64,000 nucleotides of DNA. Origin: Amoebophrya sp. A120. Taxonomy: Eukaryota > Protista > Dinoflagellata. The notes below the pieces were generated by a model. It had not been told where the DNA came from. It did no database searches and saw only the letters and a program-made list of their open reading frames with translations. The stretch spans positions 181,271 to 245,270 of the forward strand of contig CAJINV010000012.1 in assembly GCA_905178155.1 (NCBI GenBank), written 5' to 3'. Below are positions 15,501 through 59,860 of the stretch, one piece after another (the stretch's first letter is position 1; each line of letters begins with the position of its first letter). Position numbers and translations under genes: made by a program.

Positions 15501-18500
15501 GAAGTGCCGCCTTCCGTAGACCGGCCGGTGTAGATCTCGGCTTGGTGTTGTAGATGTAGTAGCACTGAAGAGGCTCTCGCCGAGGACGGAGGAGGAGGCG
15601 GAGCGAGGGCGAGTATCGAAGAAAAAAACTGTTTCACTGTAGACTTGTAATGCAGAAAATGCATCTAAGAAGTGTTTGTCTTGCTACACATGCAAGAGAG
15701 TCGATTTTTAGCTGTGTTTTCTCTTAGGAACCTCGCATGGCAAATTTTCCCTGTCATGTAGAGCAAACCTGTGATGCAAAACTTGCAAAATCCTTGCTTA
15801 CAGTGAAACACTTTTTTTCTTGGATAACGAGTCCTCGTGGACTAGTGTCGAAGTCGTAGGTCGTTATGAGAGTGCACAACCGCCTCTCCCCCTCATTTGT
15901 CATGCAATTTCCCAAATCCAGGCTCTGCCTCTTGGCGCTGTTTGCATGACAACTTCTGCTAGCCCCCAAGTAGCACTGCACTCCATTGTAAATTTGAATT
16001 TGTCATGCAAGACCGGCATTCTTGCTGATGCTTGTACTACTGCCGTTCATGCTATACAAATGAAAAGGAGGGGCAGTTGTGCACTGTCATATAGAAGGTC
16101 GCAGCAGCATTATAATCTTCCGGAACAAGTGCTCGTCTAGCTGTGGTTGCAGTTTGGTTGATGTGCTGCTTGTGGTTGTAGAAGAAATCCTGGCCATTGC
16201 CTGCTGCCCCCACAAGCTGCTTATGGTCATTAACATTATCACGACACAGATGTTGGCCTCCGTCTTGGTAACTGTATCGTCCTCTCTTTATTTCTGGTTG
16301 ATGGTCCTCTACCGATTCCGATTCGCTTACCTCGTCTGCTGCGTGTGTGGGTACCGCAGTGGCGGGATACTCGAAATTATCGAGGAAACCATCTTGGGTC
16401 GGTAGTAATGCGGTGGCTCTCGTCTCCCCACAAGGGCGACCTTGTCCAACATGCGTCACTTGTTCTTCGTGCCCTCCAGGCCGCACTGGCAGCGGCGGGT
16501 GTGAGGTGGCACGGCCGCAAGTATAAGTCCGTCTTGTTGTGGAAGTGGTGCGATTAAAACGAAACGCGTCCTCGTCACGACAGGGGGCGGCCGCGTTCGC
16601 GTTGTTTATGCTTCTACTACGCCGCTGCTCAGGACGAGCAGATGAAAAACGACCGTTGCCAACATTTTTATCGTTCGCAACTACATCTTCGACCTGTGAC
16701 GTAGTTGGTGCAACTTGTTCGTCTTCAATCGGTAAAAGTATCGCTTTCCCTCCACGAAGAACTTGCTCATGATCTTCATCGCATATCCCAGCTCTCCCCC
16801 GCCGAGCTGAATTCAATTCCCGTTGTTCCTTGTCTTGCCCTTCCCGCCGGGACGAGGAAAACAACATCGCCCCACACGCGGTGCGAACTCGCAGACAGGC
16901 CGCGGTGGCGCGGGTAGAGAGATTCTGCCACCAGTCGAGCAACTGCCAAGTTAGGGAGGACGCGCGCTGCATGTCCAGGATTTGCTCCGTCAGCGCGTCT
17001 AGGTCGCGCACGAGAAGTGTAGTGGAGGCCATCATCGTCGTGTCTGTTCTTGATGTTGTTCTCCTCGATGATTCCGCGTGAAGAGCGGCGGAAGATGAAC
17101 CTTGATGGTCCTGCTCCTCGCGAGAGGTTCTTGAAGTGCCGCTGGGTCCTCGTCGCGTGGTACTTCTAGACAGAGCTGCTTCATCCACAACTCCGGTCGT
17201 GCCTACCTTGTGGTCGCGGGATGGACCGGCGAGTTGTGGACGAGTCTGCCGTCGTGTAGTCGGGGCGGTGACGCTCTTCACCTCCACCACATACTCCTCA
17301 ATGGCAACCAGGTCGGCCTTGCTTAGTTCCACTTCCTGGTAGAAAAATGCCCGGAACTCCTTGCGGTGCTTGAAATACAGCAGCCAGGCGAAGAACACGG
17401 GGAAGAAGAAGACCAGGAAGAGAGTATCATATGTAAAAACGTCCCCACCCCATAGTCAAGTTGCGAACCTAGCAAGACAAATCCACAAGTTTTGGGAGCC
17501 ACGCATGAGAAGTTGCAGTGCGTAGTGTAGTGCATGTTAGCAAGGACAACCATAGATCACAAAGCCGTCTGCTTATCCTCTTTACAGCATTACAAATTCC
17601 AAAACGCGATTGGAAATGCCTCTCATGGAGATGCGCATTACAAATCGTCCTGTAATCGCAAATCTGCATGACAGCTATGGGGTGGGGACGTTTTTACTCA
17701 GGATAGAGAGCCTTCAGGTTGATCGTGAAGTCCAGCAAATCGTGGGGGTCCACCGGAACGTCTTTTGCAGCCGGGTCCACCGCGGCGGTTCCTCGCAGAA
17801 GGTGGCGCTGGATCCGCTCGTGTACAACGGGCACATCTACACCACCCGTAGAGGGCCATGACCCTGCAGCTGCGTGTCCATCTCCTGCTGCGGTATGGGA
17901 GTGTCAGGATCGAAATCGATAAAGTCGGAATAATCTGTATAATGCATAAAATGCTACGCAAAAACGGACTCTATTGCAGAGACTGCAAGGGAGGCCGATC
18001 ATAGTCCTGGCACGGGTCAACAGTTGGGCTGCTGACTAGCATGACAGAAGGCAGCTCTTTTGCAATAAACCGCATCACGGATGCGCTTCCAAGGCGGGGA
18101 AAATTTGTCATGCGCCGACTACAAACTGTGGGTCTAACTGGCATCGAGTTTGTGCATCACAAATTTTTCGATTTTGTCATATTCAGATTCTGACACTTCG
18201 ATATGCGGCGTCTGCATGATACTCCTCCCCACCCCCTCCAGGTAGAAGAAGGGAAACAGGAAGCAAAAGGAGCAGCCGGTCGCGAAGAAAATTACCGCTG
18301 CGTCCTCTCGACGGCGCGTCCACCTGCGCCTGTGGTGGTGGGAACGCACCAGCCCCTGTCGGATCGAAGAAGCCCCCGATGAAAGAAGTGGCTCGACCAC
18401 TACTAGCAGACCCGGACTGGTGGGCGAAGAAGTGGCACTCGATAAACGACCGGAAGATGGAAGGTCCCGCTTTGGCGGTCGGGTATAGTTTCGGCAGGAA

Positions 18501-19520
18501 CAGGAAGAGGAGGAACAGAGAACAGAGGAGCAGGTAACCCACCCACTGGTAGAACAACACGACCCCGGAGAGATCAAGTTTTTTCCCGGTCTGAAAAATC
18601 ACCTGCACCTGCGCACTGTTGATTTCCTCTGCCGAGACTGCCGCCGACGCACGCTTATCAACTGCAAAGGTATCGCACTCGTAGTAATCGCAGTCATGCA
18701 TTACAAATTTTTTTCTTAACGTAAATCCGCATTACAAATTTCATTTCTCATGCTGAGAAAATTATTTGTCATGCATTTATACGAGTACGATACTTTTGCA
18801 GTTCATAACGATTAGTTTTCAACAACGAAGCGCCAGCTCCTGTTCCTACTGCCTGTTGTGGTTGACAGTTGATTCTTTCGTCTTCTGTATCAAATGCAAA
18901 TATGTCTGGGTCTGAAAACTTGTAGTGCTGAATTGTGAGAAGTAGTGAACTCTCTGTAATGCACGGCCAAGCATGAGAAATATTTGCGCGGCCTAGTGCT
19001 GCGCTTTCAGCATGACGAACTGCGTTTTGCATGACAAGCACAAGGGTCTCTTCTTGGGCACGCATCACAAACACTTCAGTCATGCCAGACAAGCATGACA
19101 AACCTTGCGTCTTTCCAGACCCAGACATATTTGCATTTGATATTCTCGTCGTCCTGATAATTCTTCACGTCCACGACCCACGCCAACGGCAGAAACCGAG
19201 AGAGATGTTCTTTGTTCTGGCGGTTCAGGACCACCGTCGAGGCTTTTCCTTTTTCCACTCGAATCATTTTCCCCACCAGCGATCTTGTCCTGCTTGACTT
19301 GGTCATTCGTCCTTCCCGCGAATAAAAGAAGGTTCTTCTGGTGGTGTTCCCGCTTGCTTTGCAGCGAGGCGTGGTTCTTTCGGCTTCTGCGCAGATGCCA
19401 CAGAAAGGTCTCGGCCGCGATAGTGGCCGCGGTCACGTAGAAAAAAATGAACCCGCTAGCCGTGGGGCACAGGCGACACGGAATGGGGGTCTGTTCTTCG
19501 GCAGCGAAAAAATTCTCCAT
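485..19520 (-). CDS. P5-type (ATP13A-like) P-type ATPase, multi-exon, 3' end continues left of 485 / outside the window
   Basis: Spliced translation gives, in order: N-terminal P5 segment (FFYQEVELSKADLVAIEE); RSIFFQNQKLHYD; FGKNEVEIEIP followed by TM1-2; A-domain LVPGDIF...VPCDCVLLQG...NEADLTGEPMPVSK; HFLYCGT; GLVIHTGSYTLNGSLVRKILFP; TM3-4; phosphorylation motif CLDKTGT (505-519). Start ATG at 19520. One canonical GT-AG intron at 1162-1537; the other interruptions found are TIR elements. Confidence 0.9.
543..698. mobile_element. Introner family A
   Basis: TIR TATGAACTGCAAAAGTAT / ATACTTTTGCAGTTCATA; TSD TTCTC on both sides. Confidence 0.92.
907..1070. mobile_element. Introner family F
   Basis: TIR TATCACAGGGAAAAGT / ACTTTTTCTTGTGATA; TSD CCATG; removal joins GLAM to AQKF. 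Confidence 0.9.
2397..2712. mobile_element. Introner family E
   Basis: TIR TATGGAACTGTCATGATCGAAATTGACAAAG / CTTTGACGATTTCAATCCTGACGCTTCCATA; TSD CCAGG. Confidence 0.9.
2713..3686 (-). CDS. P5 ATPase exon containing the actuator-domain TGE motif
   Basis: ORF 2693-3577: WVTVNSIELVPGDIFQIPESGIVPCDCVLLQGNVLMNEADLTGEPMPVSKLPL. Confidence 0.9.
3687..3980. mobile_element. Introner family C (TSD eroded; canonical GT-AG splicing possible)
   Basis: TIR TATCATATGTAAAAATGTCCCCAC / GTGGGAACGTTTTTACTCACGATA; homologous to 6096-6365 and 17425-17705. Confidence 0.85.
4045..4189. mobile_element. Introner family A
   Basis: A-type TIRs; TSD TGCCC. Confidence 0.9.
4268..4517. mobile_element. Introner family H
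   Basis: TIR TATGACAATGCACAAC / GTTGTGCG...CTCATA; TSD TTCGG/ATCGG. Confidence 0.8.
4800..4949. mobile_element. Introner family A
   Basis: A-type TIRs; degenerate TSD ACACT/GAACT. Confidence 0.85.
5039..5288. mobile_element. Introner family D
   Basis: TIR TATCAAATGCAAAAATGTCTGGGTCTG / CCAGACCCACACACGTTTGCAATGCATA; TSD degenerate. Confidence 0.8.
5338..5607. mobile_element. Introner family D
   Basis: D-type TIRs (ATGTCTGGGTCTGG / CCAGACCCAGACAT); TSD CGTTG. Confidence 0.88.
6096..6365. mobile_element. Introner family C
   Basis: C-type TIRs; TSD CGTCC. Confidence 0.9.
6423..6574. mobile_element. Introner family A
   Basis: A-type TIRs; TSD AATGG. Confidence 0.9.
7044..8641. mobile_element. 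Introner family H enlarged by a nested transposon
   Basis: Left end TATCAGAGTGCAGAAC...CCCCTC, right end GAGGGG...GTTGTGCA...CTCATA; TSD TAGTC/CAGTC. Confidence 0.75.
7269..8579. mobile_element. Non-autonomous TIR DNA transposon (8-bp TSD) nested in an introner
   Basis: TIR GGGAT...GGAACTGTCTAAACTGACAACGGAAC / GTTCCGTTGTCAGTTTAGGTAGTTCC...ATCCC; TSD TTAATTTT. Confidence 0.8.
8910..10105. mobile_element. Introner-like element (family I) with an internal ~1-kb insertion, flanked by a 35-bp direct repeat
   Basis: Inverted ends CGTTAGCATGAGAAGTGGTGAATTTG / CAAATTCACCCTTCTGTATGCTAACG; flanks 8875-8909 and 10106-10140 match at 34/35. Confidence 0.65.
10141..10379. mobile_element. Introner family G
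   Basis: TIR TATGGTGTTCTCAACTGTTAC / GTAACAGTTGAGAGCGCCATA; TSD CCTGA. Confidence 0.9.
10491..10721. mobile_element. Introner family H
   Basis: TIR TATAACAGTGTACAACTC / GAGTTGTGCACTCTCATA; TSD eroded. Confidence 0.8.
11344..11504. mobile_element. Introner family J
   Basis: TIR TATCCACAGTAAATTTCC / GGAAATTTGTATTGCATA; TSD GACGA. Confidence 0.85.
12231..12487. mobile_element. Introner family K
   Basis: Imperfect TIR CATCCAAAAAAAAACTGTG / CACAATTTCTCTTCTTGCATA; TSD CTGCT/CGGCT; removal restores the frame. Confidence 0.7.
12504..12818. mobile_element. Introner family E
   Basis: E-type TIRs; TSD CTGCT. Confidence 0.9.
13089..14146. mobile_element. Introner family A with a nested ~880-bp insertion
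   Basis: TIR TATGCATCGCAAAAGTA / TACTTTTGCAATGCATA; TSD TTGAC. Confidence 0.8.
13741..13884 (+). repeat. Minisatellite (GCCACCCTCTCGC)n, ~11 units of 13-14 bp
   Basis: Directly visible tandem array; related GAGAGG(G)T motifs occur in inverted orientation at 13258-13645. Confidence 0.9.
14638..14901. mobile_element. Introner family G-like
   Basis: TIR TATAACGTGCTCAGGTGTT / AACACCTGAGCGGGCCATA; TSD TTTCG. Confidence 0.85.
14948..15174. mobile_element. Introner family H
   Basis: TIR TATGAAAGTGCACAAC / GTTGTGCACTGTCATA; TSD TCGCT/GCACT. Confidence 0.85.
15257..15409. mobile_element. Introner family A
   Basis: TIR TATGAATTGCAAAA / TTTTGCAATTCATA; TSD CGTCC. Confidence 0.9.
15614..15826. mobile_element. 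Introner family L
   Basis: TIR TATCGAAGAAAAAAACTGTTTCACTGTA / TACAGTGAAACACTTTTTTTCTTGGATA; TSD GCGAG/ACGAG. Confidence 0.85.
15865..16091. mobile_element. Introner family H
   Basis: TIR TATGAGAGTGCACAAC / GTTGTGCACTGTCATA; TSD eroded. Confidence 0.82.
17425..17705. mobile_element. Introner family C
   Basis: C-type TIRs; TSD GAGAG. Confidence 0.9.
17894..18203. mobile_element. Introner family E
   Basis: E-type TIRs; TSD TGCGG; empty site in paralogue at ~40522. Confidence 0.92.
18656..18807. mobile_element. Introner family A
   Basis: A-type TIRs; TSD ACGCT/ACGAT; empty site (single ACGAT) at ~41302. Confidence 0.92.
18888..19142. mobile_element. Introner family D
   Basis: TIR TATCAAATGCAAATATGTCTGGGTCTG / CAGACCCAGACATATTTGCATTTGATA; TSD TTCTG/TTCTC; empty site at ~41377. 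Confidence 0.92.
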
Positions 19521-20435: not shown

Positions 20436-21146
20436 GGGAGGCTGTTGGCTGATCGATGTTCAGTGATTTCACCCTCGCGCTCTTGCAATTTTGCGACGAT
20501 CCCTTGCCAATTTTCCTGCTGCGCGTCATGATCATATGCGGTGGCAATGCGCTTTCTTTGCAGTGCGCCCGCTTAGCTTTTTTTGTACCAGTTGGAAGAA
20601 CTGTTCTTCCCACCTATCAGGGTGCCAGCGCTGTCACGCCTATCAGGGTGACGAAAGGTCGCCATGCCCAACAGAGTAAAGAATCTTCTACCTCCGGGCC
20701 GCGCCGACGTATAGTGAAAAGCCATCCTGCATGTACTGTGCCCAGGATTTCCCTTGAAAGATCAAGGCTGTCCATAAAAGTTCTAGTAGGCCTCTTAAAC
20801 GTAAACCGTACTACGTTGAAATAAAGGACACAGACAAAAATTTAAAATTTTGCTATTACGAGTTGACCAGTCGTGTAGCGGAGATTTAGGTTTTAGCATT
20901 TAGGAAGCGGATAGCCACCGGAGATTTTGGCGCGGGTGGGAGCAGCAAGTTCTGGACGCGGCAAACCGGGATTACTTCGACCCGAACCTCGACGCTCAAC
21001 GGAGCCTGGAGCCTCGGGCTACCAACGTCCTGGACTGGATGCAGCGCCGCCGCTTCTTGCTTATTCTTTTTGTTTTTAGCATGCTGAACTAGCTAAACCT
21101 GCAGGCGCATTAGCTAGCTAAATTACGTACTACTAGCTACTAACTG

Positions 21147-21185
21147 ACCCGAAATGTAAGTAATTTTAGCACGGAACTAAGGGAG
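21147..21185. repeat. Inner inverted repeat, left copy (pairs with 31876-31913)
   Basis: ACCCGAAATGTAAGTAATTTTAGC...CTAAGGGAG versus CTCCCTTAG...GCTAAATTACTTACATTTCGGGT. Confidence 0.85.
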
Positions 21186-21731
21186 TGCGATAGATTCTTT
21201 CTCACGTGTCCGGGCACCGTCGACCAGTGGTTTCCGCGGCGCAATATGGAGGGTATACGGAGGAGTTCTGGCCTTGTTGCACCATCTAGGAACGCCAGGG
21301 CCGGTGACTAAACATTGCGGAAGAGTCGCATCATTAGGCCGCGCATGACAGATTTGGTGACAAATATAGGCATTGCGTAGGATGCAAATCTGCCCGAATA
21401 AGGCGAATTCTGAGACGTCGGCGCAGAGAGTGATAGTGCAGCCCTTGTGCGTACAATATGACCAGCCTAGGATCAATCTCGGTCGAAATCAGGTCGGTCG
21501 CAGGTACCTGAGGAAGTTGCATTGCGAAAATAAACACACTTCGAGCATTACCAGTGTCAGGACCCTAAAGATTCCGCTATTACGTCGTAAATAAGCACAT
21601 TCTGCATATCCGTTTGCAGCAGCACATCAAAACTGATAGTGGCCCCACCACTACACTTGACTACTTTACCGCTAGCAGTGTAAAGTCCGAAAGGCAATAA
21701 GTTTGGGCAGAAATGGCGCAACATACAGCAA

Positions 21732-22451
21732 GTGGCGCACGGCCAGGAGCAAATAGATACCGAAGACGAAGGAATTGCAAGACTTGCAGAAGCACTAGGC
21801 GAGCAATTTCGGGTGCGGAGGTTGTCGGAGGTGTCCCACGACATGTCTGTTGTGCCGTGGAATCACCCCGAGGGCGACGAGACCCAGGATGGCGACAACG
21901 TGTATCCTATCCAAGTGAAAACATCGAAATCTACGGACTTTGGCGCGTGGATGCGAAAAGTAAAGTTCGAAACTCAAAAGCATGCCTCTTCGTGGCACGG
22001 TGGCGCGGTTATCGGCGTGCATAAAGATCGAGACGACTACCTTCTGGTCGAAGTGCATCAGCACGAAAACTGGGAGCCGATCAGCCTCGGCGACGATCAG
22101 TGGTGGTATTCGCCTACCGCTCTCCGCACCAAGATCCAGCAGCTCTGGGTAGCGGGAGGCCTGCAACTGGAACCTTTTGCCGACCGTCTGGCCAGCCATA
22201 AAAGCCAACTGGTGGAGCTGCGTATGCGGCAAAAATTCCGCAAAAACCTGAAGCGCGCCAGGTGGGAGCTGGACTTGCCGGAGCACGAGTTTACTAGTAT
22301 TGACGCGCGGATGACAAACGAGGACACCGGTACTGTTTTTGCTGTTCAGGAGAAGACGACGAAGCAGCGCCGGGTGCGCGGAAAGTGCCATGGTTATTTT
22401 GTCGACCTCCGGCGGTATTTTCTAACTAGTTTTTTGAAGTTGTCATGCTAA
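21732..22451 (+). CDS. Tandem PD-(D/E)xK-type nuclease (two D...QxK modules); main exon, probably with further exons
   Basis: Module 1: TEDEG...SHDMSVV...YPIQVKTS. Module 2: LVELR...FTSIDARM...FAVQEKTT. The pattern resembles QxK-variant PD-(D/E)xK homing endonucleases. Confidence 0.65.
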   Translation: MAHGQEQIDTEDEGIARLAEALGEQFRVRRLSEVSHDMSVVPWNHPEGDETQDGDNVYPIQVKTSKSTDFGAWMRKVKFETQKHASSWHGGAVIGVHKDRDDYLLVEVHQHENWEPISLGDDQWWYSPTALRTKIQQLWVAGGLQLEPFADRLASHKSQLVELRMRQKFRKNLKRARWELDLPEHEFTSIDARMTNEDTGTVFAVQEKTTKQRRVRGKCHGYFVDLRRYFLTSFLKLSC

Positions 22452-23728
22452 GTTCTACCCTAAAAGCAAGTCGAAAATGATATTTGCAGCACACCATTAG
22501 AACCCGATTTAGCTGTGTGGACTAGCAAACGCCTGAATCTATTGCCCTGGCAGCGCAATAGTAGTCGCAATCTTTTTTCTTATTTGGGCGCGATAGTTTC
22601 TGCGAATCTGCACTGGCCTAGAGCGCTACAGTGCAAATATAAAACCAACCTAATCAAAATGCCTACAGGTCAAATGGCGACGGCTACACTGACATTGATG
22701 TAGTGGCGATGCACCTAAGAATGGAAGACGACCAGCGAAAAAGCCTGGCCGGGACCTTCGTCGTCCCTATCACGGAACTTCGCAAGCGGGGCCATGCGCC
22801 AATACCAGGCAAAAGGTACTGGCATTCTCCATAGCGCGTCTACCTTTGTACTAGAGTACGGAAATTTTGTGCATGCATACGTCGGCTCTAATTTCATAAA
22901 CAAAAACACGCACTTGCGATACCACACAGCATAGACGGTTCTAACAGTAGGAGCAAACTACTTTGTAAACAAAGTATAGCCTGGCGGTGCTACAGAATAA
23001 GTCACAGCGCCAGCATGTTCGGGACCTGGATCGAAATATTTTCGAGCGAAATTTGCCAAATATCGAGCAGCAAGCACCCTCGCACATTGATTCTCCAAAA
23101 TATAAAACTTTGAAAACCAACAGGAATAGATGGAGACCGACAGTCAGTATTCCGAGCGCTGACTTAACGGATCCGCGGTGGCAGCGCAGCAGTTCTTGGC
23201 TACTGCCGTACTACTTTGACGGAACGCAACCCACCCTGACGGGAATCAACTAAATGGAGACGCTTTTCACAGGTGAGGAATGCATCCCTTTCCACGCCTT
23301 TGATAATCGAGCTGGGATTTTATTTTCCTCCGCACGGCTCAAATGTAATAGCTCCACGCACGCGTCAGCTCTAGTGTCAAGCTGAACTATTTGACTTCAA
23401 CGCTTATTTCGGGAGAACTTGCTGTAGCGATACGACGATGATTTCTAACACGGAACGAGTCTCCGACTGGTTGAACGGGGATACAGTTTTCTGGGTTGTT
23501 ACAAAAAAAAATCAAGACCATATACAAAAGTAGATCGCTCGAAGATTTACGTTTGTTAATTTTCATATCTGTTCTGCGAACGTACGCACATCACTTGTTT
23601 CAGAGGCGAAGCTCAAATATATTGCATACGAAGTAACAACAAAAAGTGGGAATCTGTAACGCGCGACAACATGTAAAAGCATTCAGCAAATGGAAGCTCT
23701 AAGCTTGAAAATGTGCATGGCAATCATC

Positions 23729-26700
23729 TTACACCGGAGTCATCTCGACGTCATCACTTTTGGAGTGCAGGGACACCTTGTTCACGACTATTGTGTTGTC
23801 TTGTTTGTTGCAATGATGCGCCAACTTTGCCAGCGGAACAAACTTCTTGTTGATTAATTTCAGCTGGTCCTGTTTTCCGTAGATCGTCGCGGAGGGGTTG
23901 GTGATGTCGTTCGGAATGACGTCGCAGATTGGGCTGTACTTCATGTGCAGCTGCTTGCTCTTGTTGTCCGTTTTGTTTTGTCGCTGCAAAACGCTACCGA
24001 TCAGTTTGGAGCAAGCACTGCAGCAGAGGTCCCATTTCTCTTCGTGCAGGACCCGACCCAAATCCGTCCTGCTAGCCGCGCCGGGGATTTGTGATGACGA
24101 GGCACCACCCTCACCCATCCGCGTCCTCACACTGTATGCCAGTTTTCCAATGCTTGTCGGCTTGTTTTTCGTCCAATCGGTCGAGTCGATCACGGCGTCG
24201 TCCCACTCGTGCGGCTGCTCCTCGGCGTATTCCACCTTCAACAAGTGGCAAAGAATAGCGCGCTTCAGGGTGTCGTTGCCGGGCAAAACCGACTCGCTCA
24301 GCATCCGCCACCGGTCTCCGCCAAGAACAAATAGTCCGGCATTAGTCTGTTCCCGAGTAAGACCCGAAACCCAATCAGCAGCATCTTCGGCGACGTCGGC
24401 AAAGGTAGGAGAAACATCGAGCACAAAGCCGCGCTCGGAGGTGCACCAGGACTTTTGTTTGTGTGCTTCAAACTGGAGCGCCAACTGCGCAAAAAAACCG
24501 CACTTCATCTCCGGGATTGTGTCGCCGTCCATGCACCACTCCTGGCGATCCTCGTCAAACACCATCTCCCAGCCGACGCACAGACCCTCATACACGTCCG
24601 CCAGCAGGCACATGAAGTCGCGGGCGTAGTCGAAGGCGAAAAAAGGGGCCGACTTCATCAGCTCCTTCACCTTGTATTTTTGCATCGCGCAACGACTAAG
24701 CGCCGACCAGAACAGGAAGCACTTCTCACTGCAGAGGAGGGAGACGTAGATAAAGCACTCGAGGGCCGAGAAGTGGTAGTTTGAGGCGGTGCAGTAAATC
24801 TTTTTGCTGTCTTTTGCTGTGTTTTTGCAGTCCTCCAAGACTTGTCTCACCTCCTGGTCCATGCTCTCCTCCGCTTCGTCCAAAATGTCCTCTGTCGCCC
24901 ACTTGAGGGGGCCGACACTTTCGGCACGCTTGCAACTCGGCAGTCCCTCCGCAGCAGCTTGTTTCTCTGCTTCGTCGAGCGACCTCGCGGCCTCCGCTAT
25001 TGCGATTGCTTTTTTGGGTTGTGCTAGTAGCTGCTGGGTGGAAGAGAAGAAGGAAGTCAGGTCGCCGTCAACGTCACTGGTGTTTTGTATTTGGGTTCCC
25101 CATTTAATTCTCGCGTAGCACATCTTCATCTGCGTGGTGAGGGTTTTTAGTTCCTTGCGTTTTTCCATCATCCACGTGATGACCCTCCAATGGGCTTCAT
25201 TTTCGTAATCACTACCCACGGTGATGAAGATGCGCGCTAAATACTTTTTTAGAGCCTCTTCGTGACCGTTGGCGAGCAGCTGCCCGAGCCCGATCTCGAG
25301 CACGCTTGGCTGCGTCTTCCTGGCGCGAGAAACTGAAAGCCGGCGGATGATGTAGGGGGGGAATTCTATGCACTTCCGCCCCATCAGGCTGAAGAACATA
25401 TTCGCCGTGGGATCGTACAATTGGAAAAGAGCATGTCGCGCCAGCAGTTGCAGGTAGGCCAGCGTGTGCGTGACTGTTTGATTTGTTCTGCAGCTGCGCG
25501 CTGCTGCTCTTGCACATTTTCCGCAGATGTCATGCTCCTTGGACCGGATGGAGAACTGGAATTCATACTGCGAAGAAGCTACTTGTGGAAGGTCAGTCAA
25601 ATCGTTTTGGTGTTTGGTAAGATCTTCCCCTGCTTTCACTTGGGAGGCTTTGAGGATCAACTTGGCGCACGTCGTCAGCGGCGCCGCCATCCGCAAGTGA
25701 TGCTCCGGAATGTCAGACTGTTCGTCGATCTGCGCCAGCAGTCCGTCTATTCCCGCGAACAGCTGCTCGCGGTCTTGTGTATCATTATCAGGAGCAGGCA
25801 CTTTTTCTAGTCTTGCCATCTCGTCTTCATCTTCGGATTCGTTTTCGCTATCCGGCTCCAAATCCTTGTTGCGCTGGTCGATGTTGACCCGGGCAATTCT
25901 AGCCTCTTGCTTTGGCTTTATTTTTTTCCCCTCCTCCGGCTTCAGCAAGTTCTCCACCTGTTTGTCCCGCTTTTTTTGATCTTCTTCTGCCGAAACCGGC
26001 ACGGCGAAGGCGAGCAGGTTCCGGGCGATGGTCAAAACGCAGCGGAAGCGATGTCTGAACTCCACAAAGTATTTGCTCCCATGGGAGACGCGGCTAAGCC
26101 GGCTGGTCTTCAGCGCTTTGACCGTTATCCCTGATTTGATTTCTGTATCAATTCATGATGAAAAATGCTCAAAATATGCATTGCAAATGCTTGAGAGAGC
26201 CGCTACATGGATGTGCGCCAACAACATTCAACACAAGTTGCGCGCCGCACTATTTCACTTCAGGTTTTCCAAAATAAAACACTTCAATTTTATTCACCAT
26301 GGTGTGGTCAACATTTTTTGAAATAGCCTTCAGTTTTCTTTAGGACGACAGGGGTTATTCCAAAAGAAGTTGACCACACCGTGGGGATAGAAATTGAATT
26401 TTTGCTCTTTTATAATTGCACCATGAGTGCTTGAAAAGATGCACGCTTTTCTGTCGAGGCTCGCGTCGAGTACTCTGTCGGATGGGCTCGCTTGAGTACT
26501 CGTTCTTCCTGTGTCCCTTACCGATCACCACCTGAGTCGGTCGATTGCGTTAAGGGACACAGGACGAACGTCCACTACGGCGAACAGGTACATGACACAA
26601 GATTTTGGAGTTTCCCACTTGAGCCAGTTGATCCTAAAAATCGTAAGTCAGAAGTTTATTGAAGTCTTATTATCAAAGTTAAAAAATGAAAAGTACTTTT

Positions 26701-29055
26701 CTTCAGCCCGTCGCGCACACTCAGGCCTTGTTGTCCACACTCCCGCATTACTTCCAAGTGGTGCGGCAAGTTACTGATGTTATCCTCGGCTATTTTTTCT
26801 GCTTCTTCCCGGGCCTCTTCGAACAGGCCGACGCTCTGCCCTGTTCCCATGGGTCCCCTGGCGAACCGCAACAGCCACGCGAGCAGCCTGTCCAGTATTG
26901 TTGCTTTGTTCTCGTTGTTTGTACAACGATGACAATGCGGCAGCTCGGAGTAGCAGATGAGATGATGCTCCATAGCCCGGCAAGCCCTCTGCTCGCTAAA
27001 GTGCTGGTCTGCTCTCAGTATTAGTATTGGAGAAGACCCGTCGGCTCGTAGTATCTGCTCCGAATTTTCCACCACAAGCCAGTTTTTGAAAGCAGGTCCC
27101 AGGATGCCGGTTAACGACTGGAACAAGAAGTCGATGCTGCGTTTAGCTTTCTCATGCTTTCCTTTTGCATGCCTCGGCGTCTTGAAGACCGGCCACATGA
27201 CGATCTTTTGTAGGTAACTGACTCCATTCCAAAACATGCAGGAAGCCTGAAGTTGTGTTGATTGTGCATAAACATGTTATTGCAAAGACTGCAAACACAG
27301 GACAACTCGAAAAACATTAGTACGCGGGGAATTTGCCACGCAAAGAAAAGAGAAATCAATCGGGTAGAGCTTCGCACTTTCAATTGATACGCTCACGGCC
27401 CGGACCGCGTGCCTGGCTTTTGTCGAATCATCAAAGCCGACCGCAATTGTGAGTGCATGGCACGTGGGTGGTACTAGGTCGTACGAAGAAGCACCGTATC
27501 CACAGTATTGCCATCGTTATGTAGCTCCAGACGGCGACCTGTTTATGCATATTGGTCACTTCATTTGAAACCATTGAAATTGCACACAAGCATGACAAAT
27601 TAGGAAAAGTCAAGGACTGCATGACAGAAGTGCTATCAGTGCCCGCTGCTGATAGATAGACGAATCCGCGTGGTCCCCCACCGACTTCCGGATTGCTTTG
27701 GTAGCTTTTTGCACGTTTTGCATCACCATTTCGGTGGTCAGTCCGCTTATGTGCTTGATTTCGGTTTCGAAGGCCTCTTTGAACTTGCTTTGCAGCCCTG
27801 CGCGCAAAGTGTAGGCCTGGTTATTAGTTTGCAAGCGTTGCTGCATTTCTGCGACATTATTCTCACACGCAAAGCTCATGAAGTGGAGTGCTCATCAGAA
27901 GACGCGCCAGAAGGCTACTGGAATGCGCGGCCATTATGTATACGATGCCAAGATGCATGACAAACTTGGTTACGAGAAAAGCTATTTAGCCTGATGCCAC
28001 AAGCTCTGGCTGCTTGCTGGACCCGGTCTGCACGTCCAAAAGCATGCTCTGAAACGCTTCGGGGGATGTAGCTTCTTTTCCATCTGCGACGATTGCCGCG
28101 CGGACACTATTGCAAAATCCGTGCGCATTATTTCCGGAATATTTCCACTGGATTATGGCTGTTTAAATCACGACAAAGGTGCTGATAGTAATCAAAGTAC
28201 TGCATTTGTAGTTTTGCATTGCACAAATTAGCATGACAATAATTCGAAAAGTTATCCTACTGCCTTTGTCTAGCAATTTTCAGCCATAATCTGCTTCGAG
28301 CTGACGAGGAGTTTGCAGCTGTACACCCCATTTTGGAAGAGAAATCGCTGCCGCACCATTACCGAAAGATGGGCGAGACCTGCCGCGATATCCTTTTGGT
28401 GCCGGAGAAGGTTCTACTGCTGCGAGGAGAAGAAGCTGCGACGCGGCATCATGCGTTGATCTAAATGCACTGGCGCAACGTGTTCTTCATCATACCATCT
28501 ACCTCAACTACATCGTGCTCACTGGTCACGAAAACGAACGACGTAGTTTTACCGTTCTCCTTTTGGCGGCTCCGAGAGCGATAACCTTTGCCATGGCTCT
28601 CTTCAGACCAACAGCTCTCCCTCGCGATCACTCAAAGACATCAGCAACACGGATGCCGGAAGACGATTTTGCTACACTTGGTCACGACAGCAGCATACTT
28701 CGAAGCGATACAATGAACACATGGCTAGGACTGCAGCGGCCATCTACATCTTGGACGCATTTCGAGCTTTCTGGTATATGTTTTCTAAATCCCTTGACTC
28801 CCAGTGAAATTTGTACAAAGTCTTGCCAATTCGAAACAAGTCTCGGTATCAAATTATCTCTCACTCCAATTTCTTCCATCTCTTGTTCAAAATTTAAGAT
28901 GTTCGAGAGCTTCAATGTCGACCATGTCGACTTCATCGGGTTGTATAGTGTCGCAAAGTTCTCCTATCTAAAGGAGAACGAGAGTGCAGCTGGCAGATAT
29001 CAGTTTCGAAATGCTATTGGAAATAGTAATACGAAACAAAAAAATATAATTCCAT
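23729..29055 (-). CDS. Divergent hAT-superfamily DDE transposase, multi-exon (last exon includes the 778-aa ORF 23729-26065)
   Basis: Motifs in hAT order: IAVGFDDSTK (first Asp, 27421-27438); LILRADQH (second Asp, ~27005); LPHCHRCTN (CxxH-like, 26923-26940); KTSRLSRV..KYFVEFR (RW-like helix, ~26090); SWCTSERGF (candidate Glu, 24425-24439). Short GT-AG introns, e.g. ~27247-27323. 5' start is approximate. Confidence 0.7.
26283..26570. repeat. Cluster of fold-back hairpins inside the transposase locus
   Basis: 46-bp imperfect stem 26283-26398; repeated palindrome GAGTACTC at 26468 and 26494; 20-bp stem 26501-26570 (19/20 paired). Confidence 0.8.
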
Positions 29056-29219
29056 CGTAGAAATCCTTGCTGTAATTTAAAACTTTTACGTCATAAATTA
29101 TTGTCGTGTAGAAAACATAAGAGTAGAACTATTTTCAAAAATTGTTATACTCCAGGTAAAGCGACATCAAGATTTACTTTCGCGCTCAATCTGAATCACG
29201 ACACGTCAACCAGATTGAA

Positions 29220-31189
29220 TTACATCATCCTCGGCTCGTTCACGGCAGCGCCAGCCTTCCCCTGCGCCTGAGATTAGTTTGAAGGTGGTGATCAAGGAGA
29301 ACACGTCGATACGCACACTACCACCCGACTATCTTAAGAAAATACAACCCTCCGCAGCAGCTCATCCGAAAAAAGGCCTTGCGCATACTTTTGGACCATT
29401 ACAACGCTGCTGAAGTCTCAAAGTTGGCCAGGCAGTACGACATGCAAAACAAATCTCATGCAAGATAGCGGCTGTATTGATTCGAAAGGTGGTAGACAAA
29501 AAAGGGCTCGACACAAACGAGCTGCACCTTGCCGGCAAACAAGTTGGCGCTCGCACCACGGACACTTTCGGCAGCCTCGGCAGCCGGCGGCGGGCGGCGG
29601 CCGCTGCGGGACTGTGAAGTATAAATTTGGAAAAGTTTTATCATCAATCACTTCGAGTGTTCACCATGCACAAGACCGACTCGGCGAACAGCACAACACG
29701 TGGTGTCGACTTCTACTCATGCAGCATCAGATAAAACATCATGCAGAAAGGTAGAAAATATACCCGGTCGTTGTTGTTCACACCCGGGGCCGGGGCCTTC
29801 GGCGGGGTCGCGGCGGCCTTCGGGATGACATCCGGCATCGCCACGTCCGCCGGGGCAGCAGCAGCAGCAGCTTTCGGCATGTTCAAGCTCAAGTTCAACA
29901 TTTGCTGCGTCATCTGCTGCATCTGGTTCATCTGGTTCTGCATGACGTCGCTGTTCTGGTTCGCGGCGTTCGCAGCGGCAGCCTGTATTTTCAGTGGAGT
30001 GCTGGCATGTTTGTAATGCTGCAGTTCGAAATTATGCATAGTTGTGTGCAACGTTGAGAAAATTTCTTTCGAAGATTAGTGCGTGACAGTGTGTAAGTCG
30101 CGAGACAATCCAATATCAAGCACGCATATAAAAACTGACGTGTGAATCACAATGTCGCTGCTGACGCATGCAAGTTGGAGTCGCTGCATTACAATGCTCA
30201 ACACGTCACTACCTGGGCGGCGTTCGCCTTCGCCTGCGCCGCGGCCTGTTCGTTCTCGACCTCGATCCGGGCGTTGGTCAAGAAGGTGCAGATGTTCTGG
30301 GCGTTGGGCAGGGTGATGTTGTTGCGCTGCATCTGCCCCAACATCTGATTCGCCGCACGCGTTTCCGTTGGCTGCCTGCGTTGGAGGTCATCGGGCACCT
30401 CATAAGTTAAAGTACACAAATTAATATATGCACTGGCATCTTCTGTTCGATTTTTTTCAAAACTGTAACGCAGCCGCGCATTATTTGTAACCACTAAACC
30501 GGTGTAATGCAAACGCATATGTAAAATAAGCACTTTTTGAAGTATGCTGCTATGAGGAAGTTCTGTAATCTTTGCACCACAGCATCAAAATATAATATAC
30601 ACGGCCGGTCAGACGCAACTCCTCCAGAAAACGCTCCCGGGTATCCTCGGTCAAATTGTCCTGGATCGCGGTACGCTGGTCGTCCAAAATGGCCGCATCA
30701 CCGTTCTCCAGTTCGCAGGCCTTGATGGTGATCCGGATCAGCACTTGAATCAAAAGACGGCGCCAGTCTGAAGATTTTTTGCGGAAAATTATCAAAGCAT
30801 GCGAAGGCAACCACATACTCACTGCATCACCTTACAGCAATCATATTGAAAAAAAGTACCGGCGGGATTGAGGCGGCCTTCATTAAGCACAACGCGATTA
30901 CCACGGTTCGCCTCACGGAAGTTGTTGTAGGTTTGGCAAATATGCATTGCAAAAATAATAGAATAGCACAAATTGCGCGACGTCTTTTTGCATTCCCACA
31001 GCAAGCTATCGCAGTACAAGTATGCAAAGAATAAGCTTGCTCTTCTGCATGACTGCAATTTTGTGCATCAAAATATTTTTGCATTGGGTAAATAAAGGTA
31101 TCTGCGAGGGCTGGTGGTACTTGGGCTGGATGCCCTATTAGATAAGTAATCGCCTCTCTTATCTGGGCCTGAGTGTAAACAATCGCCAT
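29220..31189 (-). CDS. Multi-exon hypothetical Gln/Ala-rich helical protein (transposon cargo)
   Basis: GC-rich exons separated by AT-rich GT-AG introns: MAIVYTQAQIREAITYLIG..., ...DTRERFLEELRLTGR, ...AANQMLGQMQRNN..., ...MQNQMNQMQQMTQQM..., last exon AQGKAGAAVNEPRMM*. Confidence 0.65.
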
Positions 31190-31875
31190 GGTGGAGGTTT
31201 TGGGTAAAAGTAGTGGCGGCAGAGGGTGCAGTTGTTTCAAGTATAAGTCTTATCTCTCGCTCGAAAACCCTACGGGAATATTTGAAGTCAGAATATTTTG
31301 AAAGGTCCTGTGAAACAAGTATGAGTCAGAAGTTATTTGCCTAAAAAAAAGCCAGACGCTGCCCAACATCACAAAAAAATTTCAACAAACAAAACAGAAG
31401 GCAGTTTGACAGAACGCACGCTCTTTCATCTCGAGATTGTCTTTCATGGTCTGAGATCCAAATTATTTCTTTCGTCACAGCGCTGTAGAGTTTTCATTAC
31501 AAGTTTGCTCCAACAACAACACCAAACTGCGCTGCGAATATCAACCACACACGAGTACTACAATCTTGCTTGACTGGAACACACTTCAAACCATGACGCA
31601 GGGTCTAGGATTTAGAACCTCGGACTCCAGTACTTGAAGTATCGCTTTCTCGCATACGTCGTCTTGTATTTTTCAAAGATAGGTGTTTAGAGTCATAATT
31701 TTGCGTTCTTTTGCATGAATCAGAATGGCTAGAGGAGGGCTGCCAGTAGGTGGGTGTCATAGTCGTTCCTAGATGGTGCAACATGAGCACTCCGGTGCCC
31801 AGTACCGCTCGCAATTGCTTCCGGATCTGGTGCCAGAAAAGAGCTGGACCCTTCGCTTCGGACTATCTGAACTGG

Positions 31876-31913
31876 CTCCCTTAGCTGCAGGCTAAATTAC
31901 TTACATTTCGGGT
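31876..31913. repeat. Inner inverted repeat, right copy
   Basis: Reverse complement of 21147-21185 (23-bp core with one indel, plus CTAAGGGAG). Confidence 0.85.
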
Positions 31914-32524
31914 TCTAGAATACTTTAGCATCTACCTTTCTAGTTTTACCACGTATTGTTTAAAAATTAAAATGCATATGCATGAAAAGCGCCTGCAAAA
32001 AAAACATTTTTAATCTAGCTATTTCAAATGCATATTCAGAAAAATTCAGAAAAACAACCAGCCGCTGGTGGTGCTGTGCGTCCCCGCTTACCTGTACCTG
32101 CCTCCACTCCACTTACCTGTACCCGTTACCTGTACCTGCGCACTCAGTCCCGTGGACAAACCGACGGCGCAGCTGCAGCATAAAATAATTCTGAATTCGT
32201 TCTAGCAAAATTTTAAAATTTTGTCTGTGTCCTTTATTTCAACGTAGTAAACCGATGCTAAATGCCATTAACAAAACCGATGCTAAATGCCATTAACAAA
32301 AACAAGGAGGGGGGTATAGCTTTTTTGCCACTCGCTCAACAATTCAACCTTTATCGGCCAATGTTATTTGGCCGCACTGTAAGTGAAGACGGCCCTAAGA
32401 AAGCGAAAAACAAAATGAAAAATGGCGCTTGCTTAAAGCTATGATCCCTATGCACAAGGCGGATAAGAGGGCTGGCCTCTTCATCCTTGTGCCCATAGTT
32501 TCAACGTGTTGCGCCAATATACTT

Positions 32525-33628
32525 CTACCTTTGATGGAGAGACCTATTGTTCGGCCTAACAACAGTCTTATAAAAATGCCACAATTTTTTGTTGGCAAGG
32601 GGCTGAGCTTCCCTGTTCTCATATGTCCCAGAGTCACGGATGCCGACCCCTTCCTTATAATGAAATTCAAAGGCCTTCCCGAGGGGTTCTTTAAAGAGGT
32701 TTAGCACGGCACCAGTGAAGTCCTGGCAATTCTTTGCGTTCTCTCCGGAAAGTCCTGGCAATCCCAACGGACCATAAACGTCTTCGGCGGTTTCTTGTCC
32801 AGGTGCTCGGGGTAAATTCCTATCTATTCCAACTGCCGTCGAGTGCTCGGGGTAGATTTCTTGGAAGGCGTTTTTTGGTTGGCGGTATGCTGGAGGGAGA
32901 AGATTGGCCCCGACAGGCGGGATGCCTAGGATTTCGTTCTCAAAGGCCAGCCTGTCTAAACCGGCAGCAAAGGCGACAGAACCCTCGCTAAATGGCTCCC
33001 TTGGTCCCTCCCCCCAGTTGGTCTCGACGCAATAGGTTGACTGCGGTCCTTGTTCAATTCTATCGCGTACGCGCAAGGGTATAGGAGGAGACGGAGGCTC
33101 TTGCTCGAACTCGATAAGGTACCCACCTCCCGCCCATTCATAGTGCGCAACTTGCTGCCGCCTCCATTTGTAGCTGGGAGAGCTTTTGCTCTCGCCGAAG
33201 ACTTTGCGCAAGAGGTGAGAACCAAACGGTTTGGCCGGACGTGCCGCGTCGTTCACCCACCACTGCGCCCGGACGAAGTGATGCGCCACCCTTCTTCCCG
33301 CCTGTTTCGGAAGCAATGTGGCGCCCGGTTGAATTGGGCACCACATGGCTTCCAATATTGTTACTGAGGCCGGCTCAAAAAGCGGATTCGCAAGACATTG
33401 GACGTGGTTTGCATAGACTGACCTACCCAGGTTCTCTAGGCCGCGATCCTTGTCATACACATACATCGGGCGTATCTTCCTCTCGATAAGTGCGGCTGCT
33501 GCCACACTCTTTTTTTTGGTTATGCAGAGGTCGGCTGGGTGCTGTTCGGAATTAGTCGGGGGGGGATTTGTCCTGCATAGCTCGAAAGGATGGCGGCTGC
33601 CAACCACATCGAGTGAGAACGTAGCCAA
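32525..33628 (-). CDS. Permuted papain-like (PPPDE/LRAT-type NlpC/P60) peptidase paralogue 1
   Basis: His motif VAHHFVRAQW precedes Cys motif KNCQDF; homologous to 43617-44837 (shared NLFKxPxGKAFxxHY). Confidence 0.6.
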   Translation of the reverse strand: MATFSLDVVGSRHPFELCRTNPPPTNSEQHPADLCITKKKSVAAAALIERKIRPMYVYDKDRGLENLGRSVYANHVQCLANPLFEPASVTILEAMWCPIQPGATLLPKQAGRRVAHHFVRAQWWVNDAARPAKPFGSHLLRKVFGESKSSPSYKWRRQQVAHYEWAGGGYLIEFEQEPPSPPIPLRVRDRIEQGPQSTYCVETNWGEGPREPFSEGSVAFAAGLDRLAFENEILGIPPVGANLLPPAYRQPKNAFQEIYPEHSTAVGIDRNLPRAPGQETAEDVYGPLGLPGLSGENAKNCQDFTGAVLNLFKEPLGKAFEFHYKEGVGIRDSGTYENREAQPLANKKLWHFYKTVVRPNNRSLHQR

Positions 33629-34776
33629 GCCAGTGGCCCCTTCTACGGCGAGGGGCCACGCCGGGCGAGTTGTCCGCCCGTCCTCTCACTCTCCTTCCAC
33701 CTCCTGGCCCCGTTGAGCTTCAACGGGGCCCCACCCCCACCGGGCAAAGAAGCGGCGCCATGGCTGTCTGACTGCGCAAACAAGTACAGGCGGAAGCGCG
33801 CGCAACACGTTTTCGAAAAAGTAACACAGGCAACCCAACAAAGAGGGGCCGTCCGCGCGCGCGTAGTTTCATAGACTGTCGAGGCGACTCAGCCCCGTGA
33901 GCCCAGGCGCCCCACGGCCTTTCGTTGCAGCTGACGGAACATCGCAGGCAGCTAGCAACATTTGGGGAGCCCAATACTTCGAGCCCCAGGCCGCGCCCTT
34001 GCCTTTCATTTTTGTTGATCAGGCTCGCGGCCGCCACTCCCGGTGTACGCGAAAGCTTTCGCCCTGGGGGCGAAAGCTTCAACCCCCGCCCCGCCCTGAA
34101 CTGTTGTTGCCAAGTCGGTCGGGATGGGCCTTCCCACCCTGGAGCGGCGCAGGGCACCTAGCATGTGCTTGCCAGCTTGTTAGCCATGTAGCTTTTTTTC
34201 TTTTTCGTGAGTCCTCCGCGGCGCCGGGCCGTTTCATACATTCCTGTTGCTGAAACGGCGCGCGCATGCTATCTCGGCGGAACTCCCAACCGCCTGCCGC
34301 AGGCCAACCTCTTTATCTTTTCGAAATGGCAACACGCTGCGCCCTTTTTATGCCCCCAAAAAAACAATGCGCTGGCCACGGAGGAGCAATTTGCGGCGGG
34401 GCTGTGGGCGCTCGCGAATTTTCAGGCAGGCCTCGTTTCGCGACACGGGCCGCCCGCCACACGCATTGGCCAGGTGTGTGTCAAACCTCAAAAACACAGC
34501 AAGGCACCAGAACTACACTAGGCTACATGCTGAAGACTGGCCGCAACCTCCGGTGCCTGCACTGCTTCCGTAAGCAAAGTCATTGGGTTTGGGAATGGCA
34601 TTCATGGTCGTCCACTGCAGATCACACTTTGCGCCCCTTGCTGCTCGGCCCGAATGCCTCTGGGCCTGCCTTCTGGCAACTTCTGCAGTGGGTGCAGGCA
34701 ACCACACAAAAAATGGCTGGGGGGCTGAAACGAAACTACCCCAAATCCCTGCCGGGTGGGTTGTTTTGATATATAA

Positions 34777-35310
34777 TATAGGTTGTTATACAGGAATCTC
34801 AACGGTTTCATCTCAATACTATGCACGGCCTTATGTTAAAACACGAGCGAAAACTTGCGAAATCACTCTTGTAAAAACGCGAATCCGTCTCAACGAGTGC
34901 ATCTCAACGGCCTGATAGGCCTCAACGACTTTCCGATGACCTCAACGACTGGTCTCAACGAAAAACACGGCCAAGAACTCACCGGCGCAAAAGGCGGCCG
35001 CCCCATGGAAAAAGCAGAGCAGCAGACCGGACAGGAAAGGAGGGCCACGCAATGAATTAGAAAAGCACAAGGCGCAGCGGGAGCACGCGCGCCGGGATGG
35101 CACAACACAAGGACGAAAGAAGAGAATCGCCGGGCAGGGCACCCGACGACCCTAAACCCCAAACCCGCCAAACCCGAAACCCTAAACCAGTGGAGCAGGC
35201 GGCATCGATTTCGTGTGCCGGCCGTTGCGATATATTTCTCAACGTTGAGCTGTGAGGTCTCAACGTTGAGATCTAAGAGTGCAGTTGAGATTCCTGTAGT
35301 ACAACCTGTA
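34777..35310. mobile_element. Intergenic TA-ended MITE with internal TCTCAAC repeats
   Basis: TIR TATAGGTTGTTATACAGGAATCTCAAC / GTTGAGATTCCTGTAGTACAACCTGTA; several CTCAACG copies. Confidence 0.75.
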
Positions 35311-35492
35311 ATATTCGCACAGACACAGTCACAGGGCGGAAGGCCACACAAGTTTTATGCCGGAGTCCGGATTTATTTGTCCTCATTTACTTATTTGCTC
35401 AGGCGCGTCCTGCAGAGACCGTTGCTTTCTATGGCCGTCCTGCTGCATTCGCGCTGCAAAATAAAATTCTCGAGCGGGGTAACAAATTAAGA

Positions 35493-36786
35493 TTACTTTC
35501 CACCCGCCCAGCCGGCGGGTGGGTGCCGCTTATTAAGCAGCACCGACCACAAGAACACAAATCTCATCCCACCCCAACTCGACGGACCCCACCCGCCTGC
35601 AGCTCCCATAGCGTCTTCCTTTGGTTGTGCGCCCGGGGTACTGGCGCCTAAAATGGTTGAGCCGATACTCCCTCCTCCACTCTTGTTCTTCTGTCGCTTC
35701 GGCGTTTCTTGTTGTTTCTCTTCGACATGGCCTTGGGATTCCTTTTCCACAAAAACGGACTTTTCCTCTCCACTCATCAACGCCGGCACTCCGCCCTCCC
35801 GGTCGAGGCCGTTTTGTTCACTTGTCGTGGGCGGCAACACGGGCGCATGGCCGGCCTCTTGTGTGCCGGCAGGCGGGCTTCGGCCCGCCGAGGCTTCGCG
35901 CGATAAGCCCAATACCGGGCGGCCCGCCTCGGCGGCGACGCTCTCAACTTGGCTTCCTGGCGCAACGTCCCCGCCTTTTCTCGCCTGGCCGACATTTTGC
36001 TCCGCGACACCGCCAACCGTTCTCCCGGCGCGCTGCTGTGTACCAACGACGCTTTCATTCTTTGGTGGCAAAAGCAGAGGCGACTGCGTCGCCGCTTTCG
36101 TTGTGTCTCGCCGTCGTACGGTGGCCGCGCTCTTGCTCATCCCCAGGCGGTCCCTCCACCTTCTGGGCAAAACCGGCACTGCTGCTTTCCTCGTCGGGCA
36201 GCACCGGGTGTGACGATGGAGCTTTTTCCACCTCATCTTTGAGAAACTCAAATGGAGACGCAGTAGCACTGGAGGTTTCGCGATTTTCCGCCAGTGTCTG
36301 TGCCGGTTGCTTCGCGTCCGGATCCGCGCAGGTGTGCTGGTCATCTGAAACCCAACAACCGCCTTTAGAAGAAGTCGAAGAACTTCTCCCGTGCTTGTCA
36401 CTGCCAATGCGCTGGTGCTTTTCGTCGTTCTTGATTTCCGCAGCCTTCTTCTTTCCCGTCGCCTCCTTCTCCAAAACGGTCGAGGCGCTTTTCTCGTCAT
36501 CCACGGTTTCCTTGCTATAATCGTTCGAAGCAGTAGAAGAAGACGAAGCGGTGTTCGTAGACGAAGACGAGCTGCGCCGTTTTCTCCGCCGTCGCTTTCT
36601 CGTTTTACTCGCGCCCGCCTGCTGTCGCGCCGCGTTGCGCCCTGACAAATCCTCTGGAAGCTCCACATGATTCGCCAAGCCCGGGTCGTCGAGTAAATCC
36701 CCACTTCCACCAGATATTGGGCTGCCGGCACCCTTGTTGCCTTTGTTCGGCCGCCGGAGAGTTATTCTACAGAAAAGCAATCCCAT
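35493..36786 (-). CDS. Low-complexity protein starting MGLLFC (copy 1; frameshifted near 36055)
   Basis: ORFs 36055-36786 and 35493-36731; frame supported by synonymous differences versus copies at 46308-47455 and 57713-58820. Confidence 0.5.
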
Positions 36787-37604: not shown

Positions 37605-37660
37605 TTGCTGCTACGCTTGCGGTTTTTCCGACGACGATTCCGCCTCGGGCCCGCTCGAGC

Positions 37661-59804: not shown

Positions 59805-59860
59805 TTGCCGCTACGCTTGCGGTTTTTCCGACGACGATTCCGCCTCGGGCCCGCTCGAGC

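Follow-up and report, generated by a model that had tools for sequence, protein, structure and literature searches.

Can one large transposon, lying among the small introner-like elements of an Amoebophrya genome, supply the enzyme that moves them and be an intron itself? The question is raised by an 11.4-kb element at positions 20809-32249 of a 64-kb stretch of DNA from Amoebophrya, likely a parasitic plankton (the window, i.e., the whole stretch that was analysed), which an initial annotation had proposed as the autonomous master element of the introners. We propose that this DNA element lies in the likely 3′ untranslated region (UTR) of a host gene, that it carries a divergent, likely hAT-like DDE gene together with two passenger genes, and that it is likely spliced out whole, a reading to which we give a probability of about 0.63. 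In other words, the element is likely a divergent hAT-like transposon doubling as a giant introner.

Ends, target site and genes of the element

The element is a real transposon of the autonomous type, bounded by terminal inverted repeats (TIRs) and flanked by a 5-bp target site duplication (TSD). Its ends and subterminal blocks are the following:

20809-32249: whole element, 11.4 kb, delimited by TIR and TSD comparison in the 64-kb window
20804..20808, no strand: left TSD, AACCG
20809..20855, plus strand: left TIR, 47 bp, from TIR comparison
32203..32249, minus strand: right TIR, 47 bp, from TIR comparison
32250..32254, no strand: right TSD, AACCG
21147..21185, plus strand: left subterminal block, facing a mirror copy at 31876-31913 that is identical over its first 20 nt
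21275..21294, plus strand: left subterminal block, mirrored at 31764-31783, 20/20 identical
31764-31783 and 31876-31913, minus strand: right subterminal blocks

The two 47-bp TIRs are identical at 46/47 positions, and the match extends to 56 nt at 93%. The element ends are TAC...GTA, and the 19-nt element end was found at just 2 sites of the window (at most 3 mismatches), for a chance mean of 0.01. Further inside, the subterminal blocks stand in mirrored register, 339-377 and 467-486 nt from either end; both have 20/20 identical cores, and the DNA surrounding them is unrelated. Inner hairpins are also found within the element (z −6.8). The 47-bp TIRs, TA ends and AACCG flanks of the initial annotation were all recovered when re-measured, and its spliced transposase-like gene, convergent open reading frame (ORF), third multi-exon gene and inner hairpins are all present; to these we add the mirrored blocks near both ends and RNA-like contigs that skip the element as a whole.

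Two other observations concern the same ends. A perfect 25-bp tandem duplication (32249-32298) begins at the final base of the element and takes in the right TSD, and one hairpin arm of the transposase intron, AAGGGACACAG, is similar to the TIR stretch AAGGACACAG. The TIR pattern had 0 matches in viral contigs and 0 in metagenome contigs. As for related loci, 0/236 pattern matches were confirmed in metagenomes, none was found in viral contigs, and phage tblastn gave no match. No paralogous empty site for the element was found within the 64-kb window, and Rfam returned a single sub-threshold match to a hairpin of microRNA type, at chance level.

A TSD of 8 bp had also been considered possible. 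This reading, GTAAACCG, requires one end to be three bases shorter than the other. Among the catalogued small elements of the window, which were picked partly on their TSD, an exact 5-bp duplication is seen in 18/26 and an extension of the 8-bp type in 0/26. The check unbiased by the TSD is a set of 23 TAT...ATA pairs chosen on TIR complementarity alone, where 7/23 have an exact 5-bp duplication and, of the other lengths between 2 and 10, none gives an exact duplication in any pair (0/23). The 8-bp reading, disfavoured by its asymmetric ends, by the small elements and by 5 bp being the sole exact length, was dropped. With its 5 bp, the element does not show the canonical 8-bp TSD of hATs. Transib elements have a 5-bp TSD and CAC...GTG termini; membership in Transib is out, since the element ends in TAC...GTA.

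Between these ends lie three genes:

21684..22834, plus strand: passenger gene, two D...QxK-like motifs, a GT-AG intron at 22415-22668, its start and its 3′ limit approximate
23729..26142, minus strand: final transposase-like exon, encoding the conserved R (26101) and E (25198)
26143..26696, minus strand: GT-AG intron of 554 nt, with hairpins at 26278-26403 and 26488-26583 and an introner-type end at 26175
26697..27246, minus strand: middle transposase-like exon, second D at 27009, conserved H at 26931
27391..27516, minus strand: transposase-like exon carrying the first D (27432), with additional 5′ exons probable as far as ~28940
~29380..31190, minus strand: third multi-exon gene, Q/A-rich, boundaries approximate, introner-type end at 30941

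Three minus-strand exons (27516-27391, 27246-26697 and 26142-23732), joined through GT-AG introns, form a stop-free reading frame of 1,029 residues that is collinear with the Amoebophrya homologues. We consider them as one gene because the middle exon matches both P0005 (34% identity, E 5e-35, pairwise) and P0004. A HMMER search of the last exon against 1.84 billion representatives returned 4 proteins, i.e., its own fragment (188 aa, identical to the window) and three Amoebophrya/MMETSP homologues: P0002 (32%, E 3.5e-50), P0003 and P0004, the latter being CAD7952400.1 from Amoebophrya strain A25. Apart from the element's own fragment, every homologue is recorded for Amoebophrya or MMETSP, and P0002, P0003 and P0005 belong to an AT5.2/MMETSP homologue divided over two ORFs of one transcript record, which is either broken or incompletely spliced. 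Word-based searches returned no homologue for the last exon and only itself for P0004. Since public proteins show only its 188-aa piece, the full-length gene may have been overlooked so far.

The motif order D-D-H-R-E is conserved (D in DxSTK, D in DQ, H 26 residues on, R, and E in ExHW), with a spacing of 93/26/92/301 here vs 100/26/82/308 in CAD7952400.1. The H stands 26 residues past the second D in 3/3 homologues covering it, and the R motif reads SRL in this copy, TRW in the A25 homologue and SRF in P0005. The local score of the N-core is 83, for a maximum of 55 in 500 shuffles. The gene probably encodes a divergent hAT-like DDE enzyme.

PD-(D/E)xK nucleases have a restriction-endonuclease-like fold with a D and a (D/E/Q)xK motif. 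The convergent passenger resembles them in its two D...QxK-like motifs, read by eye, which come after a helix with an acidic residue, and it is a possible tandem PD-(D/E)xK nuclease; it differs in having no sequence or fold match, so that the likeness is at the motif level. Its internal repeat is weak, 41/1000 shuffles scoring equally high, and its RNA-like depth is low (~6). No homologue was found by word-based search of the nuclease exon, in viral contigs, in PDB sequences or by phage tblastn, and scans of Pfam, PHROG and PDB sequences gave no nuclease family. The AlphaFold models of the transposase-like protein and of the passenger have a predicted local distance difference test (pLDDT) of 35 and 40, respectively, so the fold searches made with them (Foldseek for the former), which gave no match, are uninformative. 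Of the nuclease, or homing-endonuclease-like passenger, that was first annotated, the motifs stand, and databases and folds lend it no support. In the Pfam scan, the third gene had weak rows only.

Skipping of the element in RNA-like contigs

Coverage and junctions were read from contigs of 4/9 listed sequencing runs. X1 is a DNA-like run, which covers the region evenly at a depth of ~43; X3 and X4 are presumed RNA, from one sample and one study. The host features on either side of the element are:

20515..20808, minus strand (from the host ORF): 3′ piece of the host transcript past the element, depth 215 (X3) and 180 (X4)
32250..33516, minus strand: host exon with the stop codon (32525-27) 275 nt ahead of the element, depth 187 and 184
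33517..35611, minus strand: TAT-ended host intron of 2.1 kb, whose in-frame skipping in X3 and X4 is the control for spliced RNA

We take X3 and X4 to be spliced RNA because the 33517-35611 intron is skipped in frame with the minus-strand host ORF. In both runs, depth is 180-215 in the flanks of the element and falls to 0 throughout the nine bins between 25408 and 30213. Three junctions skip the element: 20800->32247 (depth 79 in X3 and 78 in X4), which reproduces the empty site exactly, with a single TSD; 20809->32248 (X3, depth 40); and 20809->32251 (X4, depth 39). None of the three is found in X1 contigs. A GT-AG reading is impossible for any of them. The control intron is cut 1 nt before its TAT end and 4 nt past its other end, and the main junction allows the same register. 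This main junction has 8 nt of microhomology and one other has none (both=0). Contigs running from the flank into the element are also present in X3 and X4 (depth ~18), and the RNA depth of the transposase-like gene is 0-3.5 in both. The control intron itself has a decayed TSD and, nested within it at ~34775-35310, an inverted-repeat element in which TCTCAAC motifs recur.

The element being located 275 nt past the host stop codon, the scatter of the junctions would carry no coding cost, and the element is therefore probably a non-canonical 11.4-kb intron. Like the introners, it appears to be removed from host RNA, as indicated by three junctions in X3 and X4 and none in X1, the RNA status of these runs being indirect. 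We conclude that the element probably sits in the 3′ UTR of a host gene that is expressed, whose RNA likely loses it as a single giant intron.

Several points weigh against such a removal by splicing. X3 and X4 represent one sample and one study, their RNA label is guessed, and the sample differs from that of X1. None of the three junctions comes with a record of the sequence between its joints, although side+both is 30 in each, as a direct join would give. Moreover, contigs lose rare variants, so that X1 may have missed rare DNA excision, and the strand of the host transcript is inferred.

Removal of the whole element by splicing would fit the following course of events. The transposase would have freed the element by cutting at the TA ends, and its insertion would have involved a 5-nt stagger. 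RNA of the host gene would then run on through the element, its TIRs would pair, perhaps together with the mirrored subterminal blocks, and a permissive host splicing machinery would cut near the TIR stem at variable positions. The insertion would be nearly neutral, because a UTR tolerates variable cutting.

Competing accounts of the element, its enzyme and the junctions

The claim that the element is the master of the introners can be taken in two ways, i.e., as their sequence parent or as the source of a transposase acting on them in trans. Among short TA-ended elements of the window, 17 have an exact 5-bp TSD (controls 0-2) and 30 match at 4/5 or better (controls 1-7). The element had been credited with the geometry of ~40 small elements; the TA ends and the 5-bp TSD are indeed common, and the count comes to these 17 exact cases, or 30 with at least 4/5. 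The small elements begin with TAT, 7 nt and AAA, which is the end motif published for strain A120 in the part of PMC7789003 that deals with it. The element shares with them the TSD length and the terminal dinucleotide. AAA at TIR positions 11-13, present in 23/36 small ends vs 182/4,825 background TA sites, is also found in the element. On a matrix built from the 36 small-element ends, the element TIR ranks in the top 9-10% of 4,825 random TA sites. When the element's two 600-bp ends were searched by blastn against the window, no match to a small family exceeded 13-17 nt. Hence, the element does not share a TIR with the small elements beyond TA and AAA at 11-13; its TIR had been described as unlike any family beyond the TA, which largely stands, with the AAA to be added.

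Decayed ends of introner type lie within the element (26175 and 30941), where the initial annotation had seen no introner family. Because they sit in the element's own genes, introners would have been active before or alongside it. In X1, two contigs (5.2 and 5.5 kb) represent the interior of the element; their depth of 43 equals the flank depth and, as a rough guide, indicates about a single copy. The bin with the introner at 18888-19142 has an X1 depth of 147,206 vs 43, again a rough guide, and this family is therefore likely to have thousands of copies. The element thus seems not to be multi-copy as introners are. X1 also contains a diverged variant of the right subterminal region at 31913-31979 and a contig joining 21119 to 26269, both of which hint at a related element elsewhere. 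Judged by these comparisons, the introner families of the window do not derive their sequence from the element, because its TIR matches them poorly, blastn finds no longer match with them, it is about single-copy and a transposase homologue is recorded for AT5.2. The master claim in this parental sense was abandoned, as the TIRs mismatch, no internal sequence is shared and the copy number is about one.

There remains the account in which the transposase of the element acts in trans on the abundant TAT-N7-AAA introner families and moves them, which we find doubtful. It is favoured by the common 5-bp TSD and TA ends, by the AAA at 11-13, by the HMMER search, which gave no paralogue from this genome, and by the 56/58 published A120 families that have no superfamily in Dataset S2 of PMC12130899. 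The remainder of the TIR is unlike the small ends, no internal sequence is common, the element is about single-copy and its transposase has little RNA (depth 0-3.5 in X3 and X4), all of which speak against it. So do the introner ends in its own genes and the homologue in AT5.2, a strain for which 99.98% canonical introns are reported in the relevant section of PMC7789003. We consider it more likely that the wider transposase family, rather than this copy alone, would mobilise introners. Transposases of this family would then be the natural mobilisers of 5-bp-TSD, TA-ended introners, and the element is a good candidate for the enzyme class behind them. A tentative extension is that the element represents an unrecognised, Amoebophrya-specific hAT-like lineage, whose transposase would need just a minimal TA-N8-AAA end, might have made the tens of thousands of non-canonical introns of the genome, and might hide its own 11.4-kb, nuclease-carrying autonomous copy through splicing of the whole.

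The gene could also encode a DDE enzyme that falls in a different superfamily, known or new (Mutator, P or Kolobok-like kin), or be a domesticated non-transposase gene between TIRs. This account draws on several of the points that weigh against a hAT-like enzyme. None of the three homologues has the C of CxxH, and this copy lacks the W after R; the first D was aligned by eye to one homologue, MAFFT having misplaced that exon; the gene model is partial at its 5′ side, so the gene is only putatively intact; and the AlphaFold model, in which a hAT should show an RNase H fold with the DDE triad and a helical insertion domain, is unusable. Transposase matches were absent from Pfam, PHROG and PDB sequences, and the C-terminal dimerisation domain PF05699 had no Pfam match, this family appearing on ESM Atlas neighbour clusters only. 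A long stretch of ~400 aa, without family assignment, follows the E at the C-terminus. Furthermore, the H motif and the W between the second D and the E (W319 in Hermes) are common to hAT and MULE enzymes, as far as PMC4763223 (for Kat1 and Hermes) and PMC5225508 describe them. Among the 10 rows listed from the ESM Atlas with the A25 homologue, the top three are unnamed eukaryote clusters (0.88-0.89). On the other hand, 6/7 of the named rows are of hAT type (FAM200-ZBED5 RNase-like, DUF4371, Dimer_Tnp_hAT, DUF659), at 0.82-0.84, which is lead-level evidence. TRW and E-x-H-W come in the order expected of a hAT, and hATs with 5-, 6- and 7-bp TSDs, as well as with passenger genes, are described in sections of PMC12730594. 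Another superfamily or a domesticated gene is thus unlikely, and the hAT-like transposase of the initial annotation is retained on its D-D-H-R-E order and its Atlas neighbours, Pfam and fold searches having brought no confirmation.

As for the junctions, they could be DNA excision footprints of an element active in the RNA culture. Excision repair typically leaves retained terminal bases and complement swaps. One junction is the exact empty site, one retains terminal bases between two TSDs and one has the element-adjoining base swapped for its complement, the last two resembling repair footprints; the X3/X4 sample also differs from X1. Excision would, however, require several clones at 20-40% each. 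No joint is found in X1, both element-flank junction regions persist in X3 and X4, and the transposase is scarcely covered there. Variable non-canonical splice sites near a hairpin have, moreover, been published for the genus (PMC7789003, Fig. 3 legend), and we regard excision as improbable next to splicing of the whole element.

Template switches of the reverse transcriptase across the TIR hairpin, an artefact whose usual context of short direct repeats and a hairpin is present here, with 8 nt of microhomology at the main junction, are highly improbable, given one junction without microhomology and a near-zero interior between flanks of ~200, which would demand almost complete skipping of 11.4 kb.

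Elsewhere in the window, tandem paralogous gene blocks, 80-99% identical, occupy 36000-40200, 46600-50400 and 57800-62600, and 18200-19500 is likewise paired with 40500-41760. Introners present in one copy and absent from another make these blocks natural empty-site pairs for the small elements. A 1,058-bp TAT-ended element at 13089-14146 has an exact 5-bp TSD and a nested GC-rich tandem/inverted repeat. The region 51000-57000 is GC-rich (60-67%), with a skewed composition unlike the rest of the window, and is possibly another mobile element. Finally, a multi-exon gene on the minus strand (1520-3688) is interrupted by several introner-like elements; it has motifs that we take, from their resemblance, to be P-type ATPase-like.

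Known systems

On the origin of the Amoebophrya non-canonical introns, Farhat 2021 (PMC7789003) analysed introns of 40-1000 bp lacking transposase genes, listed two putative transposases in A25 and none in A120, and took this to rule out a general mobilisation by transposases. If the genome is of the A120 introner type, as the fit of its small elements to the published end motif suggests, a transposase-like gene in an element with the TSD length and termini of the introners would counter this premise and provide a testable enzyme for introner spread. An 11.4-kb, three-gene insert suggests that the host splices at floating non-GT-AG sites far above the 1-kb limit analysed earlier, and it would be a natural substrate for splicing studies in a lineage where U1 small nuclear RNA was not found. 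Neither this element nor any hAT of Amoebophrya turned up in our literature search, which left subscription papers outside.

The element resembles the Amoebophrya introners, as portrayed in these sections of PMC7789003, in its inverted and short direct repeats at the boundaries and in its variable non-canonical splice sites, and its TIR fits the A120-type end (TAT, 7 nt, AAA) with TAC in place of TAT. It differs from them in size and content, since those introners measure 40-1000 bp and lack transposase genes, whereas the element is 11.4 kb long, gene-coding and about single-copy. Autonomous introners are reported for other species in Gozashti 2025 (PMC12130899), whose Dataset S2 lists 58 A120 families, of which 56 have no superfamily, one is Mutator, one is Ginger and none is hAT. 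Family 38 of this set is like the element in its '5-bp TSD, TA/TA Termini' and in its TIRs of ~50 bp; it is unlike it in its length (~810 bp), in its homology to long terminal repeats and in its assignment, for which the table gives Ginger and the text 'unknown mechanism' (PMC12130899).

With the hAT superfamily, finally, the differences are the absence of a Pfam hAT domain, the missing C of CxxH and W, and the long C-terminal extension. Within this superfamily, hAT5 is defined by a 5-bp TSD and hAT7 carries passengers, according to the relevant parts of PMC12730594; hAT5 is placed there among the animal Blackjack-like hATs and is compared here by description only. The element is like the hATs in its TIRs, its subterminal repeats, its D-D-H-R-E order, its TSD of a length other than 8 bp and its passengers, to the extent that PMC12730594 and PMC4763223 describe these traits.

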